Origin: a virus | Taxonomy: Duplodnaviria; Caudoviricetes | IMG/VR virus record: IMGVR_UViG_3300045612_000175 | Coordinates: 1 to 59,545 of that record | DNA length: 59,545 nucleotides | Strand: one strand, 5' to 3' | Shown: piece by piece, positions 23,537 through 59,545 of the stretch | Layout of the letters: each line of letters opens with the position of its first letter | Numbering within the stretch: position 1 is the stretch's first letter | Notes under the pieces: model-generated | What the model saw: only the letters and a program-made list of their open reading frames with translations | Database searches by the model: none | What the model was told of the DNA's origin: nothing | Program-made: the position numbers and the translations under genes

Positions 23537-25699
23537 CTAGAGGCCTCCGAGCGTGGGGGCGACAGGTTGCCCCGAGCGCTGAGCACTAGAGGCCATATTC
23601 AGGCCACCAAATGGGGAGGTCTGCGGCGTGGGGCCACCGAGCGCTTGGCCGAGGGCCTGCTGGCCGCCGGGGCCTCCGCCCATGGTTGTGCCAAGGCCGG
23701 GGGCTGGCGTGCCGGGTGGCGCGATGGCCTGCATGAGGCTAGCCATCCCCGGTGCGCCGCCGGGAATGCCACCTTCGCTTGGTGGGATCACGGCGCCGGG
23801 CTGGCCGGGAATGAGGCCACGGGCCGCGAGTTCTTGCTGCAAGGCGGCTGGAGCGAGCGCAAGGTCTGCGGGACTAAGGCTCGTGAGGCCCTTGGCTGCT
23901 TCGACATCTGCGCGCTTCATCGTAAGCTCGGCGTCTTGAATGGCCTGTGCCGTGAGCCACTGCTGGATGTCAGGGCTGTTGAGGAACCGCTGGAGGAGTG
24001 CGGCGCGCCGATGGCGCTCAGGGTTCTCAAGGCCGAGCCAGCGACTGAGGATCCAGTCCTTGTCGATGTCGAGCCAGCCATTGGTGGTGGCCTGTGCGAG
24101 CTGGATGCCTATTTGGGCGGAGGCAGCATCGGCACTGTCGAGCTTCGGTGCGAGCTTCACGCGCACTCGGGCAGTGTGTGCCTGCGCGGGCGTGAGGCTA
24201 ATCCAGCCACCGACCGCAGTGATCGTGCCACTGTCGCTCATCTCGTCGATGGCTCTGTACACGTAGACGGGCCTGTCGATGTATTCGACAATGCCGTGTG
24301 TGGCCTTGAGCACGTTCTCAATTGATCTGTTTTTGCGATTTACGAAGTTGCTGAGCTTCCGCTGGGCGGTCTGGATGAGTGTCACGAGCTGGAAGCCGCT
24401 GTTTGTTGCCGAGCCTGCCCATGCGGCTGGGTCGATTGTGTCGCGGCTCACGTACCTTGTGAGCAAGTCATGGAACTCAAGTCCAGCCCTGTATGCATTG
24501 AGGTCCGGCTGCACGAACGCGAGCCTTTCGCCGGGGGCAAGGCTGATGACACGGCCCGGCTCCCAGTCGATCTCGCGTGGCGTCATGGTGTCGGGGTCTA
24601 CGCCGCCGGGCAATTGGCCTGCTGGACCCCACTCGTGCATGAGTACGAGCTGGCCGCGGCCGTAGCGCCGAATGGCAGTGGCAGCTTGGCTAATGGCCTC
24701 GTCGATTTGCCGCAAGATCACGAGGCTATTGTCGAAGAGGCCTGCGTACTTGTGGATGAGTGCGGGGTCACTGCCCGTGTCGCCGACGACGACCTCAAAG
24801 GGATTGCGGCCTGCTCCGTGCTCAAACGTGTCGAGGATTTCTACATCGCCGGGTTCGATCTGGATTACAGAGACGGGCAGGCTGCTCTGGCTGTCTGGGG
24901 CGCTGATCGCGATGTTTCTAGAGAGTGCATATGTGAGGTAGCGCCGATTGCCGAATGTCATGAAGAGCACGAGTGGGTCGTCACTCGGGCTGTCGGCGAG
25001 GCTCTTCGCATAGTCGCGTGCTGCCTTTGATGAGGGATACGCAGCGGCTACTTCAGAGATTGGCCTGTGGTACCAGTACACGACATTGGGGTGGCCGTAG
25101 AGCCTCGTCCATTCGTCGTCGTCGAACATGGTCTGAGGCGCGGGGCAATGCATCCTTAGGATCGGATTTGGTGCACCACGTGCCCATGAGTCCACTCGCT
25201 TGAGGTATGCACTGTCGGCCTCTTTGGGGTCTTGCTCTGGGAAGTCGCGCCAGTATTGCCGCGCCCAGACTACATAAGAGACGCCGCGGCCATAGGCAAT
25301 GGCGTCGCCATCGACGAGGGCCTGCAAGTCATTGCCACCTGAGTCTTGATACCACGCGGCATCCCATTCTTCGACAGCAGAGGCATCGCGCTGCTTTGTC
25401 GGGCCGAGGCCATCGGGCAGGCACTCGAAGCGGGGACTCTCGCCGCTGATGATGCCGACGTATTCGCGCAGCAGTGTCTTGGCAAGGCCCGTGCGGACGA
25501 TCTCGTGGTTAAGGCTGGCTTCTTCGCCGTTGGGGCCGACAGGATCAATCGCGTTCTCTTGATAGATCACGTCGCGGACTGCGACATCGAGGTCACGCCT
25601 CTCGCGCCATCTGTGCCACTGCGCACGAAACCACGAGCTGATCCATTCGGGTGTGGGCTTGGTTGTGCCCGGCAAGACAAATTTGCGCTGTGTACTCAT
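23537..25699 (-). CDS. Portal protein (podovirus-type)
   Basis: Portal-like pattern (DAIAYGRGV, LRQIDEAIS, WEPGRVISL, SGFQL) with a Pro/Gly-rich tail. ATG at 25699 has an SD (GAGAGG) and is preferred over 25966. Confidence 0.7.
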   Translation of the reverse strand: MSTQRKFVLPGTTKPTPEWISSWFRAQWHRWRERRDLDVAVRDVIYQENAIDPVGPNGEEASLNHEIVRTGLAKTLLREYVGIISGESPRFECLPDGLGPTKQRDASAVEEWDAAWYQDSGGNDLQALVDGDAIAYGRGVSYVVWARQYWRDFPEQDPKEADSAYLKRVDSWARGAPNPILRMHCPAPQTMFDDDEWTRLYGHPNVVYWYHRPISEVAAAYPSSKAARDYAKSLADSPSDDPLVLFMTFGNRRYLTYALSRNIAISAPDSQSSLPVSVIQIEPGDVEILDTFEHGAGRNPFEVVVGDTGSDPALIHKYAGLFDNSLVILRQIDEAISQAATAIRRYGRGQLVLMHEWGPAGQLPGGVDPDTMTPREIDWEPGRVISLAPGERLAFVQPDLNAYRAGLEFHDLLTRYVSRDTIDPAAWAGSATNSGFQLVTLIQTAQRKLSNFVNRKNRSIENVLKATHGIVEYIDRPVYVYRAIDEMSDSGTITAVGGWISLTPAQAHTARVRVKLAPKLDSADAASAQIGIQLAQATTNGWLDIDKDWILSRWLGLENPERHRRAALLQRFLNSPDIQQWLTAQAIQDAELTMKRADVEAAKGLTSLSPADLALAPAALQQELAARGLIPGQPGAVIPPSEGGIPGGAPGMASLMQAIAPPGTPAPGLGTTMGGGPGGQQALGQALGGPTPQTSPFGGLNMASSAQRSGQPVAPTLGGL

Positions 25700-26084
25700 T
25701 TTGATCGTGGGCCTCTCTTTTATGAAACGCGGGGACCATTTTTGGCGGCACACCACCCTTTTTAGAAAAGGCATGGGGCTTGGTACGGAATTGTAATGCT
25801 CAGTTTTAGGATTTTGCTGCGATTTTTTGTGGGTGAGTAGGGGGGATTTTGTACACGTGCACATCTTCAAAAGGTGTCCTAGCGAGCAGCCAGATTTGAA
25901 AATGTGCATATGCGCATAGTGGCATGGGGGCCGGTCGGCAGGGTAGTCTGGCCGCCGTGAGACCAAACCCTACCAGATCACTGTGGCGGGGTCTGGCCGC
26001 TTGCCAGATAGTTTCGGCGTCGCCCCGATCTCGACAGACGGGGCGACCCGCAGTGACGTACTGCGGCACACTGGAGCACGGCCA

Positions 26085-26600
26085 ATGGCACGTGTAAGCA
26101 CGGCGGATCTGGCGGCCCGGATCGACAACCTCGCAGCGGCCGTGACCGCGCAAGGTGAGACACTCGCGAGGATCGCCGACAATGGGGAGCGCCTCCTACA
26201 GGCGCTGGAGCGCATGGCAACACCCACGGTCGCACGGGTGATCGAGGGCAAGGTTTCCGTGGCGGCTCAGATCGGCAGGGCACAGGCTAAGGCGCTCCCG
26301 CGCAGGGTCGAGGGCACGATGACCCCGGTGGTCAATCTGGCCATCGGTGACCGGGTCAGGTTTAGCGCGGTCACTCGCACGACCGCAAGCGCGAAGATCA
26401 TGTCCGTGGACGGCGACAAGCGCAAGGACACGGGCGCGGTCGAACCCATCGGGTCTGGCAATCTGGCCAGCATCGAGGGCGTGGTCCGGGGCATCGCGGG
26501 TAAGGTGTGTGTGACGGTCGAGGTCGCACACGGCGCGGGCAAGGTTCTCCAGATCTGGGTCCGCAAGGATCAGGAGATCGAGCGCATCGCGACCGCGTAA
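26085..26600 (+). CDS. First early-region hypothetical protein
   Basis: GGAG SD, ATG at 26085, preceded by two strong hairpins (26019-26066). Confidence 0.7.
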   Translation: MARVSTADLAARIDNLAAAVTAQGETLARIADNGERLLQALERMATPTVARVIEGKVSVAAQIGRAQAKALPRRVEGTMTPVVNLAIGDRVRFSAVTRTTASAKIMSVDGDKRKDTGAVEPIGSGNLASIEGVVRGIAGKVCVTVEVAHGAGKVLQIWVRKDQEIERIATA

Positions 26601-26659
26601 CACACAAGGGCGGGCACGCAAGTGTCCGCCCAACACTCTTGCACACAGGGAGCATGAGC

Positions 26660-28554
26660 ATGAGCATCGCAGTCACTCTCCAAACCGTTCCGTTCGACGC
26701 GGTCACGCTCGACCGCACGTTCGAGGACTTGACCAAGCGCGAACAGCGCCTCACGAAGTTGATCGACGATACCGAGGCGGCCTTGTCAGTGGCGAACGCG
26801 GAGGACTGGTTCAAGGCGAGTGTCAACAAGTTGGTGCAGCGCACGATGCACCAGAAGTTGCAGAACCTGCGCGCCAAGAGGTCCGACATTCGGACGCAGC
26901 GCGCCACCGTCAAGAATGTGCTTGACGCGGTGGTTGAGGCACACATCGAAGCCGAGGTCGTGCTCACGAAGGAGGGCAAAGCATAGCACGGAGCACACAA
27001 GGGCACGGCACGGGGCAGGCCGCACACTGCCCCACACACCCACACGGAGGAACGGCAATGGACATCGTCGGATACGGCCCCATGTTCAGGGACCAAGAGG
27101 ACTTCGCGGCGGACGCTGAGTGGCGGAAGTGGGTCGAAAGCCCCCAAGGGCGCGAGGCATTGAAGACCCAGCGCGAAGAGGCACAGGCAGAGCACGAGGC
27201 CAAGATGGCTTCGTGTGCATCATACCGCTTGATGCAAGCCGAGATCGAGGCGGCACTGTCCGCCTCTGCGCCCGGCGAGTACGTCCTCGCTTCAGAGTGG
27301 CGACCGAACCGTTTCCGTTAGGCACCCATGCGGTTGGCAGATCCGCATGTAAAACTGCCACACACAAGGAGGCACAGGCATGAACGCTATTCTCGCGCAG
27401 TATCGCGGCGATGTGATCTTCACGTCGCCTGAAACGGCCGGTGCTCTGGGCCGGACGTTCGCCGGGGCGGACGTCGTGCTCGGTCCCGAAGGCACGGTGA
27501 CGCAAGTCATCGTGCACAACCGCTTGGATGGGGTGCGCATCAAGCGCGCCATCTTGCGGCGACTGCGGGGACAGTTCGTAGCGGTCTCAGAGCGCCAAAG
27601 CCGCGCACTCTAGGCACCCATGCGGTTGGCAGATCCGCATGTAAAACTGCCACACACAAGGAGGACTTCACGTGCGTATCACTGTGGCAGATAGCGGGGC
27701 GGCCTACAAGGCCGTCTGCATGATGCACGAAAGTGCACGACGGTCGTTCGATGTGGTCCTGATCCATGCGGGCGACGCACGAGCCGACGTGCTCGTGCAT
27801 GGTCCCGAGATCGGGGCCGCACTTGCGGCGGTTCGAGTACTCCGTGCGCTCTTCAAGCGCTGCGGTGTGAAGAACACCGTGGCAATCGAACTCTAGGCGA
27901 CCGCGGTTGGCAGATCCGCGTATGTAAAACTGCCACACACAGGAGGAACGAGCCATGTCCGCGATCCCGATGCCCACGATGGTGTACGTGCCGCAGGAGA
28001 TGACGCACGAGAGCGTCAAGGACTTGAGGCTGATGCTTCGGCATCAAGATGTTCGTATCGTGCGCTCGAACGATAGCAGCATTCGCATCGAGGGTGATGC
28101 GCTGCGTGCTCCGCGTGTGCAGGCAGCGCTCGGCACGCGATGGTATAGCCGCAACATGATTGACGGCGCTACGCAGTACAACATCTGGCAGCGCGGGCAA
28201 GCGCTCAAGGATGCCCTTGATGCGAGGGCAAGGCGCGAGGGGGCCGGTCGGCTCTGGGGCGATGAGACACCCGAAGAGATGCGCCTTGATGAGGCCATGG
28301 GCGGAAGGCACTTCGCGTGGCAGCCCAATGTGCTGGGGCGGATCGACGCCATCGCCACCACGTGCCCGATGTGCTTTGCGAGGACCACTTATGGCAGTGC
28401 ATGCAAAGTCCATGCGCACGAAGTGTACCGCGAAAGGTTGCGCGAACAGATCCGCGAGGCAGAAGCGGAGGCACTGGACCTTGAGAGGCGGGCGGTCCGT
28501 GCGAGGGCATGGCTCGACAGGCTGCGCGAAGAACTGGAGGCTGCCAGTGCCTAA
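26660..28554 (+). CDS. Five small early genes (26660..26986, 27058..27321, 27380..27613, 27672..27896, 27955..28554), each preceded by a pseudoknot-SD element
   Basis: Each has a strong SD (GGGAG/GGAGG) and fills the space between the intergenic elements. Confidence 0.75.
27319..27372 (+). repeat. 54-bp intergenic direct repeat, copy 1 (identical copy 27611..27664, variant 27894..27946)
   Basis: taggcacccatgcggttggcagatccgcatgtaaaactgccacacacaaggagg. Confidence 0.95.
27327..27360 (+). ncRNA. Predicted H-type pseudoknot cis-element
   Basis: S1 CAUGCGG/CCGCAUG and S2 UGGCAG/CUGCCA, with compensatory changes in the copies at 27006 and 27902. Confidence 0.7.
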
Positions 28555-28591
28555 GCGTGCACCGAGTGGTCGCACAGAAGGGCCGCATACG

Positions 28592-31500
28592 ATGACGTAC
28601 ATGATCTATGTGCCACGCAAGTGGCGCATAGTTCTTGATGCGTGGCGCGAGGCCATTGCGCGCAGTGATCCACACATGCGGATCTACATAGGTGCCACGC
28701 TCAAGGAGGACGTTGGCTATGTAGGCATTACATGTGTGGACGACGCCGTCGCGGAGGCATTGACCGCGTCGCTCTGCCGTGCGTTTGAGGCACGCATGAA
28801 GGGCACAACATGGATTGCGCTCGACAGACCATAAGGAGGCACAGGATGGCAGACACATGGCGCATTCTGCTCTCGGGCATCAAGTTCGACATGGACACTG
28901 CGGCCGATCCCGACATGCTTGAGGAGGCATACGTGCTAGGGCTTCCCAAGTGGGCAGTCATTGAGCCTCAAGACGTGAAGCACTTGGGCGCGCAGTTTGC
29001 GGATGCGATTGACGCGGCAGACGATGGCTGGCTCGTGACGGAGAGCCTCGCGTTCGTCACAGAGACCTATGGGTTCTGCATTCTTGACGCAACCATCGTG
29101 CTGGAAATCTCGCGCGAAGGTAAGACAATCGACGTTGTGGCATTGGCACAAGGAGGCAGGGCATGAGTGACTACATGTGGAGGCGCAAGTTCGTGCTTGC
29201 GGGGCGTGCGCTTGGTCTCATCATGCGAGAGTGCACGGGAGATCCGTACTCGCATGTCAAGAACATTGTCAACAGGTTCACGGATGCGCTAGCCGATGAG
29301 CGGCCGAGTGGCATTCGGCACTTCGACAGCATCTATGTGCAGTATGCGTCACCTTATGACAGTGGCTTCATGCCACGCGAGAAGGTAAACATTGGCCTCG
29401 CGCTCAACATGAACGCATCGTACTCAGTCATGCAGGGACGCTTGCCACAGCACCCTGCGATTGTCACGCATCAAGACTTGCTTGAGGATAGCCACTATGC
29501 GAAGTGGCTTGTCTACAAGATGCGCGGGCAAGACTTCTTCGACGTGCGAGAGTGGCACGTCGATCTGTGCCTTGAGGAGCCAGACGAAGATGTGATACAC
29601 AAGTGGCGGCTCGCGGAGGACAAGGCCATTGCATATGCAGTGGCTCAATCGGAACAGACCGCACTGTCGGTGGGAGAATAGAGCGCATGTACACATACAG
29701 CAACCTCGAGTACGTCGTAGAGATCCAGATGACGGATCGCACGCGGGGACAAGAGCATGTCCTCGACGACATTCGCGGGGCCGCCATAAGCGGTCGGCTC
29801 AGCCAGTACCTGCGCCCAGTTCCAAGCAGCATCTGGCTGCCGCAGTACAACCTCATGCGTCCGAGGTACTACGACGACGCACTTGAGGCATGGAAGGCCG
29901 ACGCATGGGGCGGCATGGCCATTGATCCAGCACACGACACGAGCATCGAGATCGACAAGGACGACATGGTTACGCTGCGTCTGCACCTCACGCAGACCGC
30001 ATGCGTCAAAGCGCCGAAGGGACTGATGCGCGACATTGCGCAGGCTGGCTGGCGCGTGCGGACCGTCGTGCACTGCCATGGCACGCCCATGGTGGAGCAT
30101 TGGGACTGCTTCCTTACGGCGGGGGCAAGCCTCGGTGACTTGCGAAGCGCCGCCACTCTGAAGCGAGGACGCGCATGGGCGCGTGAGGCTGATGGCTTCA
30201 TGCGCGGGATGGATTCTGTGTCCAAGAGCAGCCACTCGTGGCGGGGCATCGTGTGCCTTGGCGAGTGCGAGAGCGGGTTGTACTTCTCAGGCGACATGCG
30301 TAAGGAGGTGCACGCGTGAACATAAAGCGTTGGAGGCGCTACATGAAGGGTCTGCGGCACGCACGGGGGCTTGATGCCGAGGCGACTGGAAAGGAGGCAG
30401 TCGTGTACGTCTGGAACCCGGAGGTAATCCGGGGCATCCTTGACGTGCGGCTAGATAGCGCGCGTGTCGAAAGCGCAGACATTGTGGAACTCTACCACAC
30501 GCTCGTGCCACTGGTGCAGAGAGAACTTCAATATGCGCGCATGCGTATTGACGAAGTTGTGCTCAGCACTTTGCATGAGTACTGCGAGAAGTACAAGGAG
30601 GCCAATGATGCGTGACTTGTTTGATGTGACCATTCCGGGTGTACCAGAAGGCTGGTACGAGACGCTTATGTGCGACATCCAATGGGATATCACTGCGCCC
30701 ATAAGCGTGTACGATGCCAACTATCAGCCAAGGAACACGGTAAAACCGGAGATAAAGTACTACAGCCTCACGCCTAAGGACTGGCGCGAAGTGAAGAGGC
30801 TGCCCCGTGCGCTATACGTGAGGTATCCGCTCGACAAGGGGATCACGCCTGACTACATGACCCGTGTGGTTGAGGACCACTACGGGTGGTACATCTCTGG
30901 GGCAACGTGGGCGTCCGCGATGCGAGAGACATGGAACGTGGCCGCAAGGGACGCGGATGCCCATGGCGTGAAGACTGCGTGGATACGAAAGGGGGTGCTG
31001 GTATGGCGCTAAGTGTGGAGATCTATCCTCGCATAAGCGGGGAGCGGTGCGAGGAGAATGTGGGTGGTTGCCGCATCGTGGCGGTCTGCACACAAGATCC
31101 AGAGCACTGGTGGGACTACGAGACCGTCACATGGCGGATCACCAAGCACAATGGGAGGAAAGTGGCCACGGTTGGCCACTTGGAGTGCACGCATGGCAAG
31201 ACCACGGTGAGCGTGTCGCAAGTTCGTCCCACGTGGGATGACCTCACGTGGTTCGAGAGCGATGGGGTCTCGCCCACCACGTGCGAGGAGGCGTGCGAGG
31301 TGGAGCCAGATGGCTCATGTGAGCACGGCCACCGTGCATGGACGTGGCTCGCAGTTGGCTTTGCCTAGTGACCATATGCACAGTCACTAGTGTGTGTACG
31401 CATGGCGCATGGGAGGACACAAGAGCATGGCACTGAGCATCTTCGCGCGGGTCGGGCGGGCAATCAAGCGTGGGCTTGGGCTGCACATGATCGACGCGCA

Positions 31501-39200: not shown

Positions 39201-39275
39201 TGGAGCCGAGAGTGGGAGTCGAACCCACGACTGGCGGTTTACAGGACCGCTGCTCTGCCACTGAGCTATCTCGGC
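39201..39275 (-). tRNA. tRNA-Thr(UGU), CCA encoded, C33
   Basis: Acceptor GCCGAGA/TCTCGGC; anticodon arm GCGGT-CCTGTAA-ACCGC; T loop TTCGACT. Confidence 0.88.
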
Positions 39276-39276
39276 G

Positions 39277-39348
39277 TGGCCCCCGTGGGACTCGAACCCA
39301 CAGCCCAAGGATTAAAAGTCCCTTGCTCTACCGTTGAGCTAGGGGGCC
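39277..39348 (-). tRNA. tRNA-Lys(UUU), no encoded CCA
   Basis: GGCCCCC/GGGGGCC; AGGGA-CTTTTAA-TCCTT. TGgTATCCT extended -10 lies 8 nt upstream. Confidence 0.92.
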
Positions 39349-39364
39349 GCATGAGGAGGATACC

Positions 39365-39931
39365 ATGGCATACTCGGGTGATGACGTGACCAAGCCAAGC
39401 TGGCATGCGAGTGTGCGGGTCGGTGGCTTCGACGACGAGTGGCTGAAGTGGGAGGGCGTGGATCGCGCACACATCTTGCACGAGATCGTGAACATCAACG
39501 ATGCGCCCTATGAGGTGCCAGTCGTAGACAAGAACTACGTGAATTGGTGGCCAAAGGGCTGGAGGCTGGGGCTTGTACGGCCCTCGTACTTGTGGACGCT
39601 CATTGCCATGAACGCACACAAGGGGCTGACTGTCAGGGCCGTTGATGATGACCTGACTGTCGTCACGAGGGCGACTGATCCGCTCCTTGTGTGGGATGCA
39701 GTGGCGTCATTTGCGGCGACTGTTGATGAGACCCTTGTGATCTACAGCAAGGGGCCTAAGCCCGTGAAAATCAGGCTCACCCCTGATCGCGATGTCATGG
39801 CCACGTGCTACGAGCTAGATTCCGTGACTGGTGCAGATGGCGACCCGCTCGATGGCGATGGCGAATGGCCCGAGGGGGTGGAGTGCGCGAAGCTCGCATG
39901 GGACTTGGCGTGGAAGAGGCGTGAGCTATGA
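39365..39931 (+). CDS. Hypothetical protein between the tRNA pairs
   Basis: GAGGAGG SD, 188 aa. Confidence 0.65.
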   Translation: MAYSGDDVTKPSWHASVRVGGFDDEWLKWEGVDRAHILHEIVNINDAPYEVPVVDKNYVNWWPKGWRLGLVRPSYLWTLIAMNAHKGLTVRAVDDDLTVVTRATDPLLVWDAVASFAATVDETLVIYSKGPKPVKIRLTPDRDVMATCYELDSVTGADGDPLDGDGEWPEGVECAKLAWDLAWKRREL

Positions 39932-39966
39932 GGACATAAGTCCGTAAGGACGTGAGGCGGCGCGCG

Positions 39967-40042
39967 TGGTGCCTCGGGCGCGGGTCGAACGCGCGACCGT
40001 CCGCTTAGAAGGCGGATGCTCTGTCCACTGAGCTACCGAGAC
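39967..40042 (-). tRNA. tRNA-Arg(UCU)
   Basis: GTCTCGG/CCGAGGC-ACCA; TCCGC-CTTCTAA-GCGGA. Confidence 0.92.
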
Positions 40043-40049
40043 GCGCCCA

Positions 40050-40125
40050 TGGTAGGCCCGGCGGGAATTGAACCCGCGGCCACTGACTTATAAGGTCAGT
40101 GCTCTCACCACTGAGCTACGGGCCG
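40050..40125 (-). tRNA. tRNA-Ile(UAU), C1.U72 mismatch
   Basis: CGGCCCG/CGGGCCT-ACCA; CTGAC-CTTATAA-GTCAG. Confidence 0.9.
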
Positions 40126-41299: not shown

Positions 41300-44200
41300 A
41301 TGACGTTTACATCACGAGGCTTCGGTATCAGAACCAATGCTGACGCACAGAAGGCGCGGCTTGATGAGCTTGCAAGGAGAGTAAACCTAGGGAAGCCTGA
41401 AGAGCAGGCCCCTACTGGCCCCACGGCCGCGGACTACAATGCAGTCGCAGGCCTTGTGCCTGAGGCATTCCCTGCTGGCTTCGAGCCACTGCCCGAGCGT
41501 CCAGTCGATCCAGAGCAGGCAGCCATTGATGCCGCAAGAGCCAGAGCATCGGCGTACCTGAGCGCGCCAGACAACGCTGCGATGCAGACCACAGACATTG
41601 GTGGCACGCAAGTCAGGTCATTGAGGCCGGGCATGACATGGAACTTCACGCCCGAAGAGGCAGCCTCGCGTATCGACACGTTCGAGTCCGCAATCAATGC
41701 AGGCGTGAACCTCACACCTGCCGAGCGCGAGGAGTACATGGCGGCACAGGCCACCCCCGGCGTGAACATTCGCAAGGGTGGCTGGGACACGGCAGGCAGG
41801 AACCTCTTTGTCGGCGCAACGGGAGGCGTGGCTGCCCCCATTGGCGGTGCCATGCGCTTCATTGGCGAGAATGCTGGCGTGCCGGGCATGGCAGAGAGCG
41901 GGGCAGCCATCGAGGAAAGCGCGGCTGGGCAACAGGCCCGCTTCAATCCGCCGACAAAGGAGCAGCTCGACAAGGCGACGGGCGTGCCTGAGCCGAAGCC
42001 AGAGTGGGGGGCGAACAGCCTGTTCCAAGTCAACACATGGACGGACGGGCGCATGCTTGACCCGAAGTGGTGGGAGGCCCTCGGCGCACAGAACTGGGTC
42101 AAGACGACAGGCATGCAGGGGCTTGGCTCATTTGCTGGAACTGCGCTTGTTACCGCGCCCCTTTCCATGGGGGCGAGCGCACTGCTTGAAGCGCCCATGC
42201 TTGTCGTTGGTGCGCGCTTTGGACTGAAGCCCGGTGTCATTCGAGGCAGCCTTGAGATTGCCGACAGGCTTGGCCTTGGTGGGGGCGATGTCGTTGACGC
42301 ACTCACAGAAGCAGCAACTGCATATTCAGATGCAAGACGTGAAGGCAAGTCTATAGACGAAGCAAACAGAATTGCCGGTCAAGTCAGTGCCATGAATGTG
42401 GCGACGAATGTTGCGCTTGGCTCTGCCGGTGAAGTTGCAGCCAAGCTCAAGGGTGCAGGCATGGCGGCACGGAAGCTCAACAATTTGCTGAGACGTAGCC
42501 CCGTGCCTGTTGAGACGCAGCTCGCGACCGCAGAAAGAATGGCATCAGAAGGACTCATTCAAAAAGTCATCCTTGATAAGGTCAAGTCTGCAATTATTGC
42601 AGGTGCAAGAGAGGGACTTCAAGAGGCGCAGCAAGGCAACATTCAGGACACGGCAAAGGACGACACGCCATGGGATGTCATGCGTGCGTACACGAGCGGC
42701 AAGTACACGGACGACATGCTCGCTGGCGCATTGCTTGGTGGGGGCAGCCGCTTTGTCGGATCAATGCGGACGATGGCAAGGCCAAGCGGTGCGCTCGGCA
42801 TCATGTCGCAGCCACAGAAGGCACAGATTGAATCTGTGATTGGCGACAATCCTGTATTCAAAAACCTCCCTGAAGAAAGCGCATCAAGACTTGAGGATCT
42901 GAAGAGTCGAGTATCTTCAGGACAAGTGTCTTTTGATGATGGAGTACGAGAGTTAGTTGACATTGCATTTGAATTGCCATCTGAACATTTTGATGCAATC
43001 AGACCAAAACTTGACATGCTTGAGGAGAGCGCTGCCGAAAGTGCGACTCAAGAAACAGGAGGTGGTGGGGGCGCACCTCCGACACCGCCACCTACAAAGA
43101 CGGGCGGAACACCAGTAGATCCAGAAGAGGAGCGCATCAGAAGGCTCATGGATCTAGATGATCCACTCAGGCCGGGGTCAAAACTTATAGATAGATATAG
43201 AAGTCTTGCAAGTCAGGCTCGTCAAGGTGTGCTTACAGCAGATCAACTAAGAAATGATTTGTTTGATCGTATTCAAGATGATAGCAATCTTGATGATGAA
43301 GGAGTTAGCGCTCTTACAGATGCATTGCAAAGTCTTGATATATCTGCTCCACAAAGTGAAGCAGTAGCAAATGCAGAAAGAATGTACGCTGCAAGAGATA
43401 GGGAAACAGAGGAAGTAATCACACCGGAACCTCCAACAAAAAGCTCGTCAAGCATAGCACCTAGTGCAGCTCAAACACCTAGTACTGCTAGGTTTACGAA
43501 GCCAGAACAGACTATTCCTACAGAGCAAGCGGATGCAGAAGTTCGCAAGGCAGTAGACGAATTCCTTGCACAGAATCCTGACATTAAAATATCTAGAGAT
43601 ATTATATACGATCAAAAGTATAAAGATTTTGTGCAAGAATTAACTAATAAATATAATTATACAAGTATATATGCACCTCCTGAGTATAATGAGTTTGCTC
43701 CATGGAAAGTTCCACAAGACTCTGCACGTATGGCTATATATAGTCAGCTAATTCAAGGAAGGCGCGCACAGCAAGCAGGATCACAGCAAGCGGCTACACG
43801 TATTATAACTACTCCGCAAGCTAGACAGAGGCTTGCAAATCTCGGAATGACAAATGAACAACTTGTACGCTATGTTCCTACTCCAAGCGGAAATAATGGA
43901 TCATATACTCTAGCCGACGTAACAAAAGCAGAGAGTCTAATGAATGCGGAGGGTTCCGTCGCGGGAGAGCCTGTTGCCGAACAGCCTGTTGCCAAGCCAC
44001 CGGCCGCCGAGCAGCTCGTCACCGAGCCACCGGCCGCCGAGCCACCGGCCGCCGAGCAGCCCGTCACCGAGCAGCCCGTCGCCGAGCGACCAGCCGCCCA
44101 ACGAGTCGTTAGGTTTGAAAATCCTTTTATTCAGAAAGCTTTTGAAGCTGCAAAAGAAAATGGACTTGTATCTGATGAAGATATCCTTGCGCTTTCTCCA

Positions 44201-47200: not shown

Positions 47201-50200
47201 GTAGTAAGAGAATCATCAGAAGTACAAAAAGAAATAGCTGCTGAAAAAAGAGCAGCAAAAGCAGCGGGAGCCACTGCAACAGGCAGCGCTGCACCAGCAG
47301 AAACACCAGCCACTGCACCAGCCACTGCACCAGCCGAAGCACCAGCCGAAGCACCAGCCGAAGCACCAGCCGAAGCACCAAAAGAACTTGATGCAAGTGG
47401 CATACAAAATATACCAGATGAAGTTCAAAGAAATATAAATGTTTATAATGGATTGTTAAAATTATTAACAGATAATAATCCTTTAATTGTATCAGCAGCA
47501 AAACAAGGAATGAACGACGCTCTTATAGCTATAAATTCAGGTGGATATACTGTTGATTTTGCTACAGGGAAAATTATAGAATCTGCCTCAAGCTTGGGAG
47601 CTATGAGAGATGTATTAAATACTATTACTGGTACTGGTACTGGTACTGGTACTGGTACTGGTACTGGTACTGGTACTGGTACTGGTACTGGTACTGGTAC
47701 TGGTACTGGTACTGGTACTGGTACTGGTACTGGTACTGGTACTGGTACTGGTACTCAAGCACAAGCGCCAGTAATTAATAAATCTAATCTAATGTCATCA
47801 GTAAGAAATCTTGTAACTACAGGCCAATCAAATGATATTATAAATCACTTGGGTGGAATGAATCTGATTGATGCTGGAAGAACTATTAAAGCAGCACTTT
47901 CACGCACCTCTAAAAAATCACCAGAAGGAGTGCGTGACAGACAATTTATTATTGATAACATAGATAAAATTTTTACTGATCCAGCAAAGGCTCAAGTTGT
48001 TAGAAATATGGTGGAGGGCAAAACAACTACAGTTACTTTACCTACCACATCAGTCAATCCACCAGCACCACCAGTCAATCCACCAGCACCACCAGTCAAT
48101 CCTCCCGCACCACCAGTCAATCCTCCCGCACCTCCAGTCAATCCTCCCGCACCACCAGTCAATCCTCCCGCACCACCAGTCAATCCTCCCGCACCACCCG
48201 CACCACCCGCACCTCCAGTCAATCCACCCGCACCTCAGCCTGTTCCTCCGACGCCACCACCAGCAGGTCCCACTCAAACTTGGTGGGAAACACTAGAGGC
48301 ATGGCGCTATGCAAACGCATTGTCAAATGTTTTCCAGCTTGCTACAGAAGGGCTAAATGCAACAGTACGAGTAGCTGAGCTTTTCACACTTAATCCAATA
48401 GAAGGCGCGGTTCAAGGCGTGTTCAAGAAATTTGGAGCACAGGGTGAGCAGACCGCATCAGTAGGCGCATCGCTTGCTGGCGCCACAGGAATACTAGATG
48501 GAATTGCCAACGGCGCAGTAAATGGATTCAAAGCATTTACTGATCCAAGCGCAGTACTTCGTGGTCCAAATACAGACATCAAGCTTCTCACTCAAAGCGA
48601 GATTGCAAAAAATAATAGGCTGGCAAAATATGGACTTACTGGCCTAGAATTAATTGGCACAAGACCAAGACTTGCACTCGACATGCTTGCTCAAGGTATT
48701 GCAAGAAGCGTTGCGCTATCAACAAGAGCAGCGCTTGATGCACAGAATTCAGTGGGAGACATTTCATCTCAGGCTGGACAAGCCAAGATGAAGGAGTCGA
48801 AGTTTATTCTTGGGCAGGCGATGGCATGGCCATCTGTCATGAAAGACAGTGAACAGATCATGTCAGAAGCTGAGTATATTAAGATGCTCGGCAATGTTTC
48901 AAGCCAGCCAAATCTTTTGAATGATATTCGCGCAGCACAATACAATGGATCTCAGGCCTTTGCTTCAGATGCTGACATATACAATGCAGCAAAGAAGGCA
49001 TACGAAATTGAAGACGAGGCAAGAGGAATATCAAACCAAGGAACAAGGCAGCCGAGACTCTTTGGAAGGCTGTTCGCCGGAAATCCTGTGGCAAAAAATC
49101 TTGTGCTGTTCACGAATTGGCTTGCACGAGAATCATACCGAGGCCTGTCATACACTCCGGGCGTTGGCGCTGGCCTCATGTTGTATGATGTACAAACAGG
49201 CAAATACAAAGACATTGAAGGTGGAGCAAGCAAATGGATTGGAACACCTACTGACCCAAGGACCGAGAGGCTGTCGAAGCGTGTAGCCATGCAGATCATG
49301 GGGAGCATGGTTCTTGCAGGAGGCTTTGCGCTCAGAGCAATGGGCCGTATGAATGGCGATGGCCCGGAGGAGCCAGAAGAAAGAAGTGCGTGGCTTGCTG
49401 AAGGCAACATTCCATATGCACTTACTTGGGACAATCCAGACGGCACCAAGGCACAGTTCAAGCCGTCCGGTGTGCTTGGCGCGCTCATGTATCCGCTTGT
49501 TGCAGGAGCCATCGTTCACGACACCATCATGGGGTCAGAGTATCAAAGCCCATCAAAGGTGCGAGACGTACTTGACAAAGTTAGAAGACTATCTGTTCAG
49601 TACGCAGAGTGGATGTATGATAATAGCACTCTAAGAAACTATAATGAAATCATGAATGCGCTCCAAGCTAATAACTATGGAGAGCTAATGAACAGAATCA
49701 TTGCGAATCAAGTTCTCTCGTATGTACCAGCGTCTGGCCTGATGCGAGGAATCAATGCAGTGTCAGACAAGTACATGAGAAATCCAGACGATGTTCTCGA
49801 TTATATTTCAAACTCGCTGCCGACTGACAAGGATGCAATTGAGAAGAACCAGCAAGGAGGAAGACCGCAACTAAACATGGCAGTCAGGCCAAAGCGAGAT
49901 GAGTTTGGAAGGCCAGTACAAAATCAGTACTACGCAGAGGACACTGCGGGCAAAGTGGCAGGCCTGTTTAGGAGACAGTTCGTTTCCACTACAAGAGAGG
50001 GAAGTCAGAAAGACCAGCTCGGAAGGCCGACGTACCAATACGCTGGAGCAAAGACGAAGGCAGAATCTGTACGCATCGGAGGAGCAGTCAACGCTGTGGA
50101 GAAATATCTTAGGAATCCTCAGCTTGAGCGAGAACCTACCGCAGAGGAATATAGAATCGCAGCCAGATATTACGGCGGCAAAAATGTCCTCTGGCAGGAT

Positions 50201-59191: not shown

Positions 59192-59545
59192 GTGTGACGA
59201 CGGCGAGCGTCTCGAATATCGGCGGCGTGAAGGCGCGAACGTTGCGCTGTGCCACGTTTACCACCACGGGCAGCCCGACGGTATCGGTTGCCGCGTACGG
59301 CAAGGTGACGTACGACGTGTACACGTACACGGGCAGCGGAACGCTTGTCGCGGGCAGCGCTAATCGCATGATTCGGGCGCATATCACCGTTGCAGCCGGT
59401 GGGGGCGGCGGGGGGTCTTGGGGCGGCGGCGGCGGCGGAGCGGGAGGGTTTTTTGATGGCGGGTATGCGTTGCGAGGCGGGGTTACATATACGGTCACGG
59501 TTGGTTCCGGGGGGGCGGCCGGAGTCTCGGGTGGGGCAGGCGGAT
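59188..59545 (+). CDS. Glycine-rich fibre/RBP, N-terminal part (continues at the window start)
   Basis: GTG at 59188 overlaps the upstream TGA; VYTYTGSGTL...AAGGGGGG; open to the end of the window. Confidence 0.75.
   Translation, partial: MSVTTASVSNIGGVKARTLRCATFTTTGSPTVSVAAYGKVTYDVYTYTGSGTLVAGSANRMIRAHITVAAGGGGGGSWGGGGGGAGGFFDGGYALRGGVTYTVTVGSGGAAGVSGGAGG

Follow-up and report, generated by a model that had tools for sequence, protein, structure and literature searches.

Introduction

The operator of phage T4 gene 32 combines a 5′ pseudoknot of ~28 nt with an adjacent unstructured stretch that holds the ribosome-binding site (RBS) (PMC535899). In the tisB mRNA, a 5′ pseudoknot and a single-stranded region are needed for binding of protein S1 and the 30S subunit (PMC7708055), and ACA motifs upstream of a Shine-Dalgarno sequence (SD) are described to enhance translation (PMC3879156). 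T4-type phages contain PeSL cassettes, intergenic units that mediate modular shuffling (PMC2839356), and in 2023 a total of 8,495 candidate structured RNAs (“DNAVirus_X”) was catalogued from IMG/VR, some of them located directly upstream of phage genes (PMC10690425). Here we describe an array of small genes in a lake-water phage, the whole IMG/VR virus record IMGVR_UViG_3300045612_000175 of 59,545 bases (hereafter the window). Three of its intergenic gaps carry an H-type RNA pseudoknot of ~34 nt in front of a CA-rich single strand, an SD and a start codon. Judged from comparative sequence analysis, this pseudoknot is real and widespread among unrelated lake-water phages.

The element shares with the T4 gene 32 operator an H-type pseudoknot of ~30 nt located 5′ of a single-stranded, repeat-rich RBS leader, and an occurrence in T4-type phages (PMC535899). 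In contrast to that operator, its leader repeats are CA/ACA instead of UUAAA/UAAA, no sequence relation was seen, and the three copies of the window precede three different genes, none of which is gene 32 or belongs to a Pfam or PHROG family. The likeness to tisB, which we compared by layout alone, consists in a 5′-proximal pseudoknot plus a single strand (PMC7708055). However, the +42 mRNA of tisB is a chromosomal toxin mRNA of Escherichia coli in which the element acts about 100 nt from a sequestered RBS, whereas the RBS of the family described here is open and 6-40 nt away. PeSL cassettes are likewise composite units that reach from an upstream stop codon to a downstream SD and start codon and are repeated in plastic regions before ORFans (PMC2839356); the window also shows repeats at the borders of variable ORFans and a recombination joint between copies. 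PeSL units consist of a σ70 promoter and a plain stem-loop terminator, whereas the repeats of the window have a covarying pseudoknot, no U tract and no σ70-like promoter (none was found in 25400-29000). The IMG/VR candidates come from the same data source and are the same kind of object, but the text portions of PMC10690425 describe no such motif.

Results

The array contains three copies of an H-type pseudoknot

The array comprises six consecutive small genes on the plus strand (26085-26600, 26654-26986, 27058-27321, 27380-27613, 27672-27896 and 27955-28554; span 26085..28554), which form cassettes delimited by the elements described below. The six genes gave no PHROG match, and their sole Pfam row is below threshold. 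All five gaps show the layout of stop codon, structure, CA-rich run, SD and start codon, as reported in a first-pass annotation of this DNA, and every stem listed there is present where it had been placed.

Copy 1 of the repeat (27319..27372, plus strand) begins with the stop codon TAG (27319-27321), followed by the pseudoknot (27327-27360), a CA-rich leader, an SD (27367-27373) and an ATG at 27380. Stem S1 pairs 27327-27333 with 27343-27349, stem S2 pairs 27335-27340 with 27355-27360, and the third loop (L3) is A-rich. Copy 2 (27611..27664, plus strand) is identical to copy 1 over 54 nt, with the pseudoknot at 27619-27652 and a GTG start codon at 27672; a stand-alone 54-nt contig in sequencing run X12 matches this repeat. 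Copy 3 (27894..27947, plus strand) is a gapped variant with the pseudoknot at 27902-27935, an S1 of CGCGG/CCGCG, a longer L3 and an ATG at 27955. Both the identity of the first two repeats and the altered S1 of the third agree with the first-pass annotation. Each copy begins 5 nt past a stop codon, and the bases following S2 are CACACA. In the window and in the related phage contig L009 (see below), 17-20 nt separate the end of the motif from the start codon, and the SD is unpaired. The arms TGGCAG and CTGCCA with a gap of 8-25 nt occur six times in the window compared to 0.24 expected occurrences, and three of the six are these copies.

Nested folding of the three copies gave energies no better than those of shuffled sequences (z = -0.71, -0.28 and +0.60) and chose S1 for one copy and S2 for the other two, because such folding cannot represent the crossing helices of a pseudoknot. 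Evaluated singly, S1 amounts to -6.5 to -10.2 kcal/mol and S2 to -6.8 to -6.9 kcal/mol, and the two helices are compatible, not competing. In copies 1 and 2, the L3 of 5 nt is probably too short to span an S1 of 7 bp, judging from general pseudoknot geometry, and the working S1 is therefore likely its inner 5 bp, as in the rest of the family.

Relatives of the element occur in other lake-water phages

The first-pass annotation had proposed a covariance-model search of phage metagenomes, and searches of viral contigs did find the motif elsewhere. A first pattern scan of viral contigs yielded 14 loci, one of which was a true relative: L009, a syntenic contig of a related phage with flanks of 73-83% nucleotide identity to the window on both sides. 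It contains three motif copies; in one of them S1 has changed from GCGG/CCGC to GUGG/CCAC, and copy b has a G-U pair in S2. A second, degenerate pattern, which allowed transitions in S2 and did not force complementarity, matched the three L009 copies and seven AT-rich contigs. Three different S2 sequences that are new relative to the window were obtained in this way, all of them perfectly complementary. In the seven contigs, a CA-rich leader and an SD come next after the motif, and a conserved gene for a 90-amino-acid (90-aa) protein then begins. Two of the large AT-rich genomes have a gene for a T4-type Gp23 capsid protein.

Pattern-free sampling with this 90-aa protein identified at least 571 relatives. 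We used the best 80 loci, all on contigs of T4-like lake phages. A structure scan flagged 61 of the 80, and after three of these (L091, L100 and L104) had been reclassed by eye, 58 loci with the motif remained; with a sequence-only model, 57 of the 80 loci had the motif in front of the 90-aa gene. Of the remaining loci, again by eye, 17 of 80 show a hairpin with a CA-rich loop and 5 of 80 something else. In seven loci, a second motif copy precedes another gene.

Further scans served as an internal control. A genome scan gave two matches, both without S2 complementarity and hence chance hits, and a metagenome scan gave ten loci, of which six were real (four of them duplicate viral contigs) and four were chance matches without complementarity. 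Thus, all six chance matches of these later scans lack S2 complementarity, while all real ones are complementary. The metagenome scan revealed no further high-GC relatives. The array region had no blastn match among GenBank phages, a tblastn search of the same phages with the 90-aa protein returned a single weak match (33% identity), and viral contigs searched with two of the cassette proteins contained no close relatives of these.

S2 and the junction are identical in the window, in L024/L027 and in L119, a contig with several copies (see below), although S2 is otherwise freely variable in the family. This suggests that the element has been exchanged between phage lineages.

Covariation supports both helices

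The window itself provides only one compensatory pair, since two of its three copies are identical. The covarying H-type fold with a free SD that the first-pass annotation had postulated from the window was proven by the sequences from other phages. We aligned 50 distinct sequences with MAFFT (alignment A2), to which the window contributed 2, L009 3, the pattern scan 4 and the 58 protein-sampled loci 41; duplicates and one locus running off its end were excluded. Pairing cells amount to 86.9% compared to 71.5 ± 1.0 in shuffles, and 97 double-sided changes were counted compared to 29.7 ± 6.6 (0 of 500 shuffles reached either value); controls with slid pairing had at most 21. The sequence-only model supplied a second set of 83 matches (62 distinct), which gave 96.0% pairing cells compared to 77.8 ± 1.0, and 120 double-sided changes compared to 32.6 ± 8.0. 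Here, compensatory changes affect 8 of 10 pairs (3 of 4 in S1 and 5 of 6 in S2). In both alignments, double-sided changes fall on 8 of the 10 or 11 pairs, the score is reached by 0 of 500 shuffles, and slid controls are far lower. Covariation in the aligned sequences therefore shows that an H-type fold with both crossing helices has been kept.

The resulting family architecture consists of an S1 of 4-7 bp, a one-base loop (U), an S2 of 6 bp (UGNNNG/CNNNCA), one or two junction bases and an A-rich third loop, which would lie in the minor groove of S1. Loop bases are conserved across unrelated phages.

A covariance model built from these 50 sequences (R1) and run over the whole window with filters off matched the three copies only, at 27324-27370 and 27616-27662 (34.8 bits each) and 27896-27945 (21.3 bits), all of which are training sequences. 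Nothing was matched at 27006, 26608 or 25986 at E ≤ 10. Of the five pseudoknots and a weaker sixth proposed for the array by the first-pass annotation, those at 27327, 27619 and 27902 were thus upheld, while the other three are not members of the family.

The element at 26608 (26608..26631, plus strand), which follows the first gene and precedes a CA-rich leader and SD, folds as a plain 10-bp hairpin with a GNRA (GCAA) loop (z = -4.69 for the region). In L009, the hairpin at the corresponding place also has 10 bp and a GAGA loop; its upper stem is altered and pairing retained, and inspection by eye of L009 revealed no partner for the S2 that had been claimed. The gap at 26987..27057 (plus strand) contains a degenerate relative of the repeat: a 7-bp S2-like hairpin (27012-27018 with 27027-27033), a CA leader and an SD. 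The hairpin region 27006-27033 has z = -2.45, and its alignment to copy 1 is better than 497 of 500 shuffles. Since the A-rich loop is missing, we regard it as a decayed relative of the repeat and not as a pseudoknot of the family. At 25980..26084 (plus strand), where the weak sixth had been placed, the rightward operon begins with a structured 5′ leader of three hairpins (minimum free energy [MFE] -54.5 kcal/mol, z = -3.13), and the element at 25986 is modelled as a plain hairpin within it.

The pseudoknot matches no known RNA family

With Rfam 15, the only hits in the whole window at gathering thresholds are four tRNAs. No family, xrRNA (exonuclease-resistant RNA) included, fell on the elements in 25900-28000 at E ≤ 10, nor in the loci of L009, L022, L024, L025, L027 and L119 at E ≤ 1. 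This agrees with the earlier statement that the element is not preQ1, SAM-II, guanidine-III or pistol. Our literature searches turned up no description of the motif, and the family is apparently unnamed; the 2023 IMG/VR catalogue may contain it (PMC10690425).

The fold nevertheless raises the question of a small-molecule riboswitch. In riboswitches of the preQ1-I type, P1 is short, the tail is A-rich and the hairpin loop takes part in a second helix. The small H-type fold of the element, with its A-rich third loop and its invariant bases at the junction, resembles this architecture in size and topology. In contrast to preQ1-I, S2 is longer and forms a stable helix of 6 bp and the SD is not part of the fold, so that no expression platform is visible. 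The Rfam searches at the thresholds given above found no riboswitch, and the downstream genes share no pathway. We therefore consider a riboswitch very unlikely.

The repeats delimit exchangeable cassettes

A comparison of gene content between repeats in related phages, which the first-pass annotation had also suggested, showed that the repeats are retained while the cassettes mostly differ. Between the conserved flanks of the window and L009, the repeats alone match (85-91% identical) and the cassette genes are mostly different. When the six cassette proteins were compared with the matching regions of L009, L019 and L020, a homologue was found for only one of them, an L009 open reading frame (ORF) with 38% identity over 60 residues. 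In addition, population contigs from four lake runs contain three joints. The first, 27025 -> 27354, lies inside the 6-nt ACTGCC common to the decayed element and copy 1 and removes the intervening gene (depth 108.5 in run X10). The second, 27894 -> 28486, is located at a 5-nt match, and the third replaces the end of the first gene up to exactly its stop codon at 26601. Being repeated and conserved while the genes between its copies vary, the cassette also serves as a joint for gain, loss and exchange of small genes. The earlier proposal of recombination joints between swappable cassettes is thus borne out by the L009 comparison, the deletion joint and the differing cassette proteins.

The proteins of 27380-27613 and 27672-27896, located behind copies 1 and 2, show weak mutual similarity (blastp E about 0.05), and the former resembles an L009 cassette protein (E 2e-6). 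From these similarities, the array may be a diversifying family of paralogues.

This behaviour could in principle be explained at the DNA level alone, by a recombination site, promoter or protein operator that has no role as RNA. Two overlapping inverted repeats at cassette boundaries, the deletion joint inside the repeat and the differing cassettes of relatives are what such an element would look like. A DNA site does not account for compensatory changes that maintain pairing as both arms change, or for G-U pairs tolerated on the sense strand only. Moreover, all sequence-model matches in the window and L009 are on the coding strand, and no σ70-like promoter was found in the region. An exclusively DNA-based role is thus highly improbable.

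Position and context in T4-like phages

In the T4-like loci, the motif is accompanied by an upstream box. An xTAAATA box (CTAAATA or ATAAATA) was found in 74 of the 80 loci and has the sequence CTAAATA in 62, and the conserved bases that end the 5′ arm of S1 are mostly 13-20 nt past its first base. The same sequence, CTAAATA with the C at -12, has been proposed as late promoter of the T4-like phage Aeh1 (PMC1524935). The T4-like genome G001 has 38 CTAAATA sites on the gene strand compared to 3 on the opposite strand. If CTAAATA is a late promoter, the pseudoknot begins at most a few bases from the transcript start.

At the same distance past the CTAAATA box, a hairpin of 6-8 bp with a CA-rich loop replaces the pseudoknot in the 17 loci mentioned above (L035-L037, L047, L074, L077, L079, L086, L088, L090, L091, L093, L098, L100, L104, L105 and L108). 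At this place, hairpin and pseudoknot are interchangeable 5′ elements.

A transfer-messenger RNA (tmRNA) of β-proteobacterial or permuted type is encoded close to the 90-aa gene in motif-bearing T4-like lake phages (L022:1376-1764, L024:2049-2422, L027:4858-5243 and L063:457-846). Hosts of β-proteobacterial type use RNase E and, to our knowledge, lack RNase J. The first-pass annotation had named a 5′-exonuclease block against RNase J as one possible function, besides an S1-binding translation enhancer and a protein operator; the RNase J version rests on an assumed host type, and the tmRNA of the T4-like carriers is of β-proteobacterial type.

The layout shared with the T4 gene 32 operator also suggests a translational operator for a trans-acting protein, which would be nucleated at the pseudoknot and spread over the leader to cover the RBS. 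Loop bases conserved across unrelated phages are compatible with a bound protein, as is the fact that five large T4-like phages have the motif only once per genome, in front of one conserved gene. However, the downstream genes are mutually unrelated: no homologue of the 90-aa protein was found in the window, L009, L019 or L020. The model of this protein (predicted local distance difference test [pLDDT] 85.8) consists of two helices without a PDB match at E ≤ 0.001 and is uninformative, and the leader is CA-rich and lacks UUAAA repeats. The window phage and G001 have only four proteins in common, ribonucleotide reductase, ThyX, a Pyr_excise-like protein and a DUF6321 protein, none of which is an evident RNA binder. 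This favours a host partner or a self-contained role over a phage repressor, and we judge an operator of the gene 32 type to be improbable. The shared DUF6321 protein is encoded at window:57556-57846 and is 44% identical over 78 residues to its G001 counterpart.

Composite units in L119 and terminators in L020

In L119:4300-9500 (minus strand), nearly every gap is a composite unit, and five gaps contain, in this order, the pseudoknot, a tRNA-like element of ~62 nt, a short hairpin, an SD and a start codon. The tRNA-like element consists of an acceptor-like stem and a T-arm with GGTTCGAGTCC; neither ARAGORN nor Rfam called it. No T-loop motif was found within the array of the window. The L119 units look like a tRNA-style punctuation of a phage operon.

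L020, a more distant relative of the window phage, has canonical intrinsic terminators in equivalent gaps, one of them at the position of the 26608 element. Within L020:4600-8100 (minus strand), two terminators form a 61-nt repeat, 761 nt apart, and a U-less 10-bp hairpin precedes a CA-rich leader.

In L009:3296-3365 and L009:2612-2685 (minus strand), the bases directly behind the upstream stop codon can pair with the SD region on the far side of the pseudoknot and form a closing helix in the MFE structure. In the models of these two copies, this helix could couple translation of adjacent cistrons; such complementarity is not evident in the copies of the window.

Genomic setting of the array

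AT skew places the genes at ~22.2-25.9 kb on the minus strand, so that the array opens a rightward operon beside a divergent control region. Before the array, a G run, ATTTTG and a palindrome-like ACA..GTG stretch are found, in this order, in the window (window:25800-25880), in L009 (L009:4440-4500, minus strand) and in L020 (L020:7800-7860, minus strand). This conserved motif is likely a promoter or operator.

The window encodes a DnaE-type polymerase, a PrimPol-D5 primase, ribonucleotide reductase, an SNF2 helicase and a PD-(D/E)XK nuclease, and its only tRNA genes, four in number, are found at 39201-40125. A 129-base direct repeat at its ends (1-129 and 59417-59545, 99% identical) suggests a complete genome that was circularly assembled or is terminally redundant; despite this repeat, the record is classified as linear and 77% complete. 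A low-GC island (window:41285-55311) has a GC content of 0.38-0.50 compared to about 0.58-0.64 elsewhere. It contains an ORF of 2,991 aa with in-frame tandem repeats (43953-44102, 47289-47384, 47596-47781 and 48009-48279), downstream of which large ORFs without Pfam or PHROG matches are located. All 24 sequencing runs listed for the array region are labelled as lake-water or freshwater metagenomes.

Discussion

We propose that the element is a portable 5′-untranslated or intercistronic RNA module that acts in cis on the following gene and at the same time forms a cassette boundary. To this reading we assign about an even chance. The portable cassette would consist of stop codon, pseudoknot, CA/ACA-rich single strand, SD and start codon. 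Its molecular function and partner are what we infer from the fold, spread, position and cassette behaviour described above: the pseudoknot would give the following cistron a folded, nuclease-resistant 5′ end, a 30S standby site through protein S1, or both, and the ACA-rich leader would boost initiation.

A role for the downstream cistron is favoured because the 54-nt repeat is continuous with leader and SD, because the motif of the T4-like phages travels with the 90-aa gene behind a promoter-like box, and because a simple 5′ hairpin can replace the pseudoknot in these loci. Two published systems point in the same direction: the leader is rich in ACA, a translation-enhancing motif (PMC3879156), and the 5′ pseudoknot of tisB together with its single strand is a proven S1/30S standby site (PMC7708055).

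Several observations weigh against this proposal. The rows of both alignments stem from related phages, the 41 protein-sampled rows of A2 had passed a filter for pairing potential, and the sequence-only model was trained on A2. The five large T4-like genomes have the motif once each, which a gene-specific operator explains equally well. Across the family, motif and start codon are separated by anything between 17 and about 40 nt, and no RNA run is among those listed for the array region. Finally, in some contexts the motif is not followed by an SD or resembles a 3′ end: in L067, L068 and L082, a copy is located between a stop codon and a TTGACT-17-TATAAT site with no SD after it, the five L119 copies end at the first base of the tRNA-like element with no SD directly after, many T4-like copies are followed by a terminator-like run of 4-8 U, and L020 has its canonical terminators in equivalent gaps.

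The contexts of this last group are also those expected if the element punctuates the upstream unit, as a 3′-exonuclease block, an attenuator or terminator, or a tRNA-like processing substrate that ends the preceding RNA. Cutting at the L119 tRNA-like element would turn the pseudoknot into a 3′ end, the last bases of the motif are CA and often CCA, and the copies of the window start 5 nt behind stop codons. On the other hand, a U tract is absent from the copies of the window, scoring of terminator-like sites gave none within the array, the repeat continues into the SD, and the L119 element was not recognized as a tRNA by either program. In the T4-like phages, the motif accompanies the downstream gene behind its promoter-like box, while the upstream sequence differs. 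We consider an exclusive function in the upstream unit rather unlikely. Nevertheless, because of the copies without SD, the U runs and the L020 terminators, a role in 3′-end formation or processing remains the main rival of a module for the following gene, and the two roles are not exclusive.

One more specific function was considered and rejected. A stop codon is located 5-11 nt before each high-GC copy and is TAG in six of six cases, an arrangement reminiscent of a stimulator of readthrough or frameshifting. However, TAG is the most frequent stop codon when a crude gene set is counted (16 of 37), a read-through product would, by our reading, end in a frame different from that of the next gene, and the T4-like copies lack this arrangement. 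An intrinsic terminator, that is a G+C-rich hairpin followed by a U tract, is not found in the array, although some T4-like copies have U runs.

A wider interpretation, which we put forward only tentatively and with less confidence, is that of a horizontally mobile “RNA punctuation” element of phages. A pseudoknot of ~30 nt would be read by a conserved host machine, either 30S/S1 or the apparatus of tRNA processing and RNA decay, and would delimit and protect expression units and boost their expression. Its users would include the 59-kb phage with a DnaE-type polymerase, T4-like myoviruses and the L119 phage, in which it is fused to tRNA-like units, and copies would pass between these lineages.

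Small unknown genes abound in phage genomes, and the signals for their expression and exchange are poorly known outside T4 and T7. The element described here is a short structured RNA with strong comparative support, found exactly where swappable cassettes meet, in phages that are unrelated but share one habitat. If it is indeed a self-contained stabiliser or a module on which ribosomes land, immediate expression of newly acquired genes would be explained, and a ready-made insulator part would be available for engineering. If it is instead a processing signal tied to tRNA-like units, phages would use a logic of “tRNA punctuation” like that of mitochondria.

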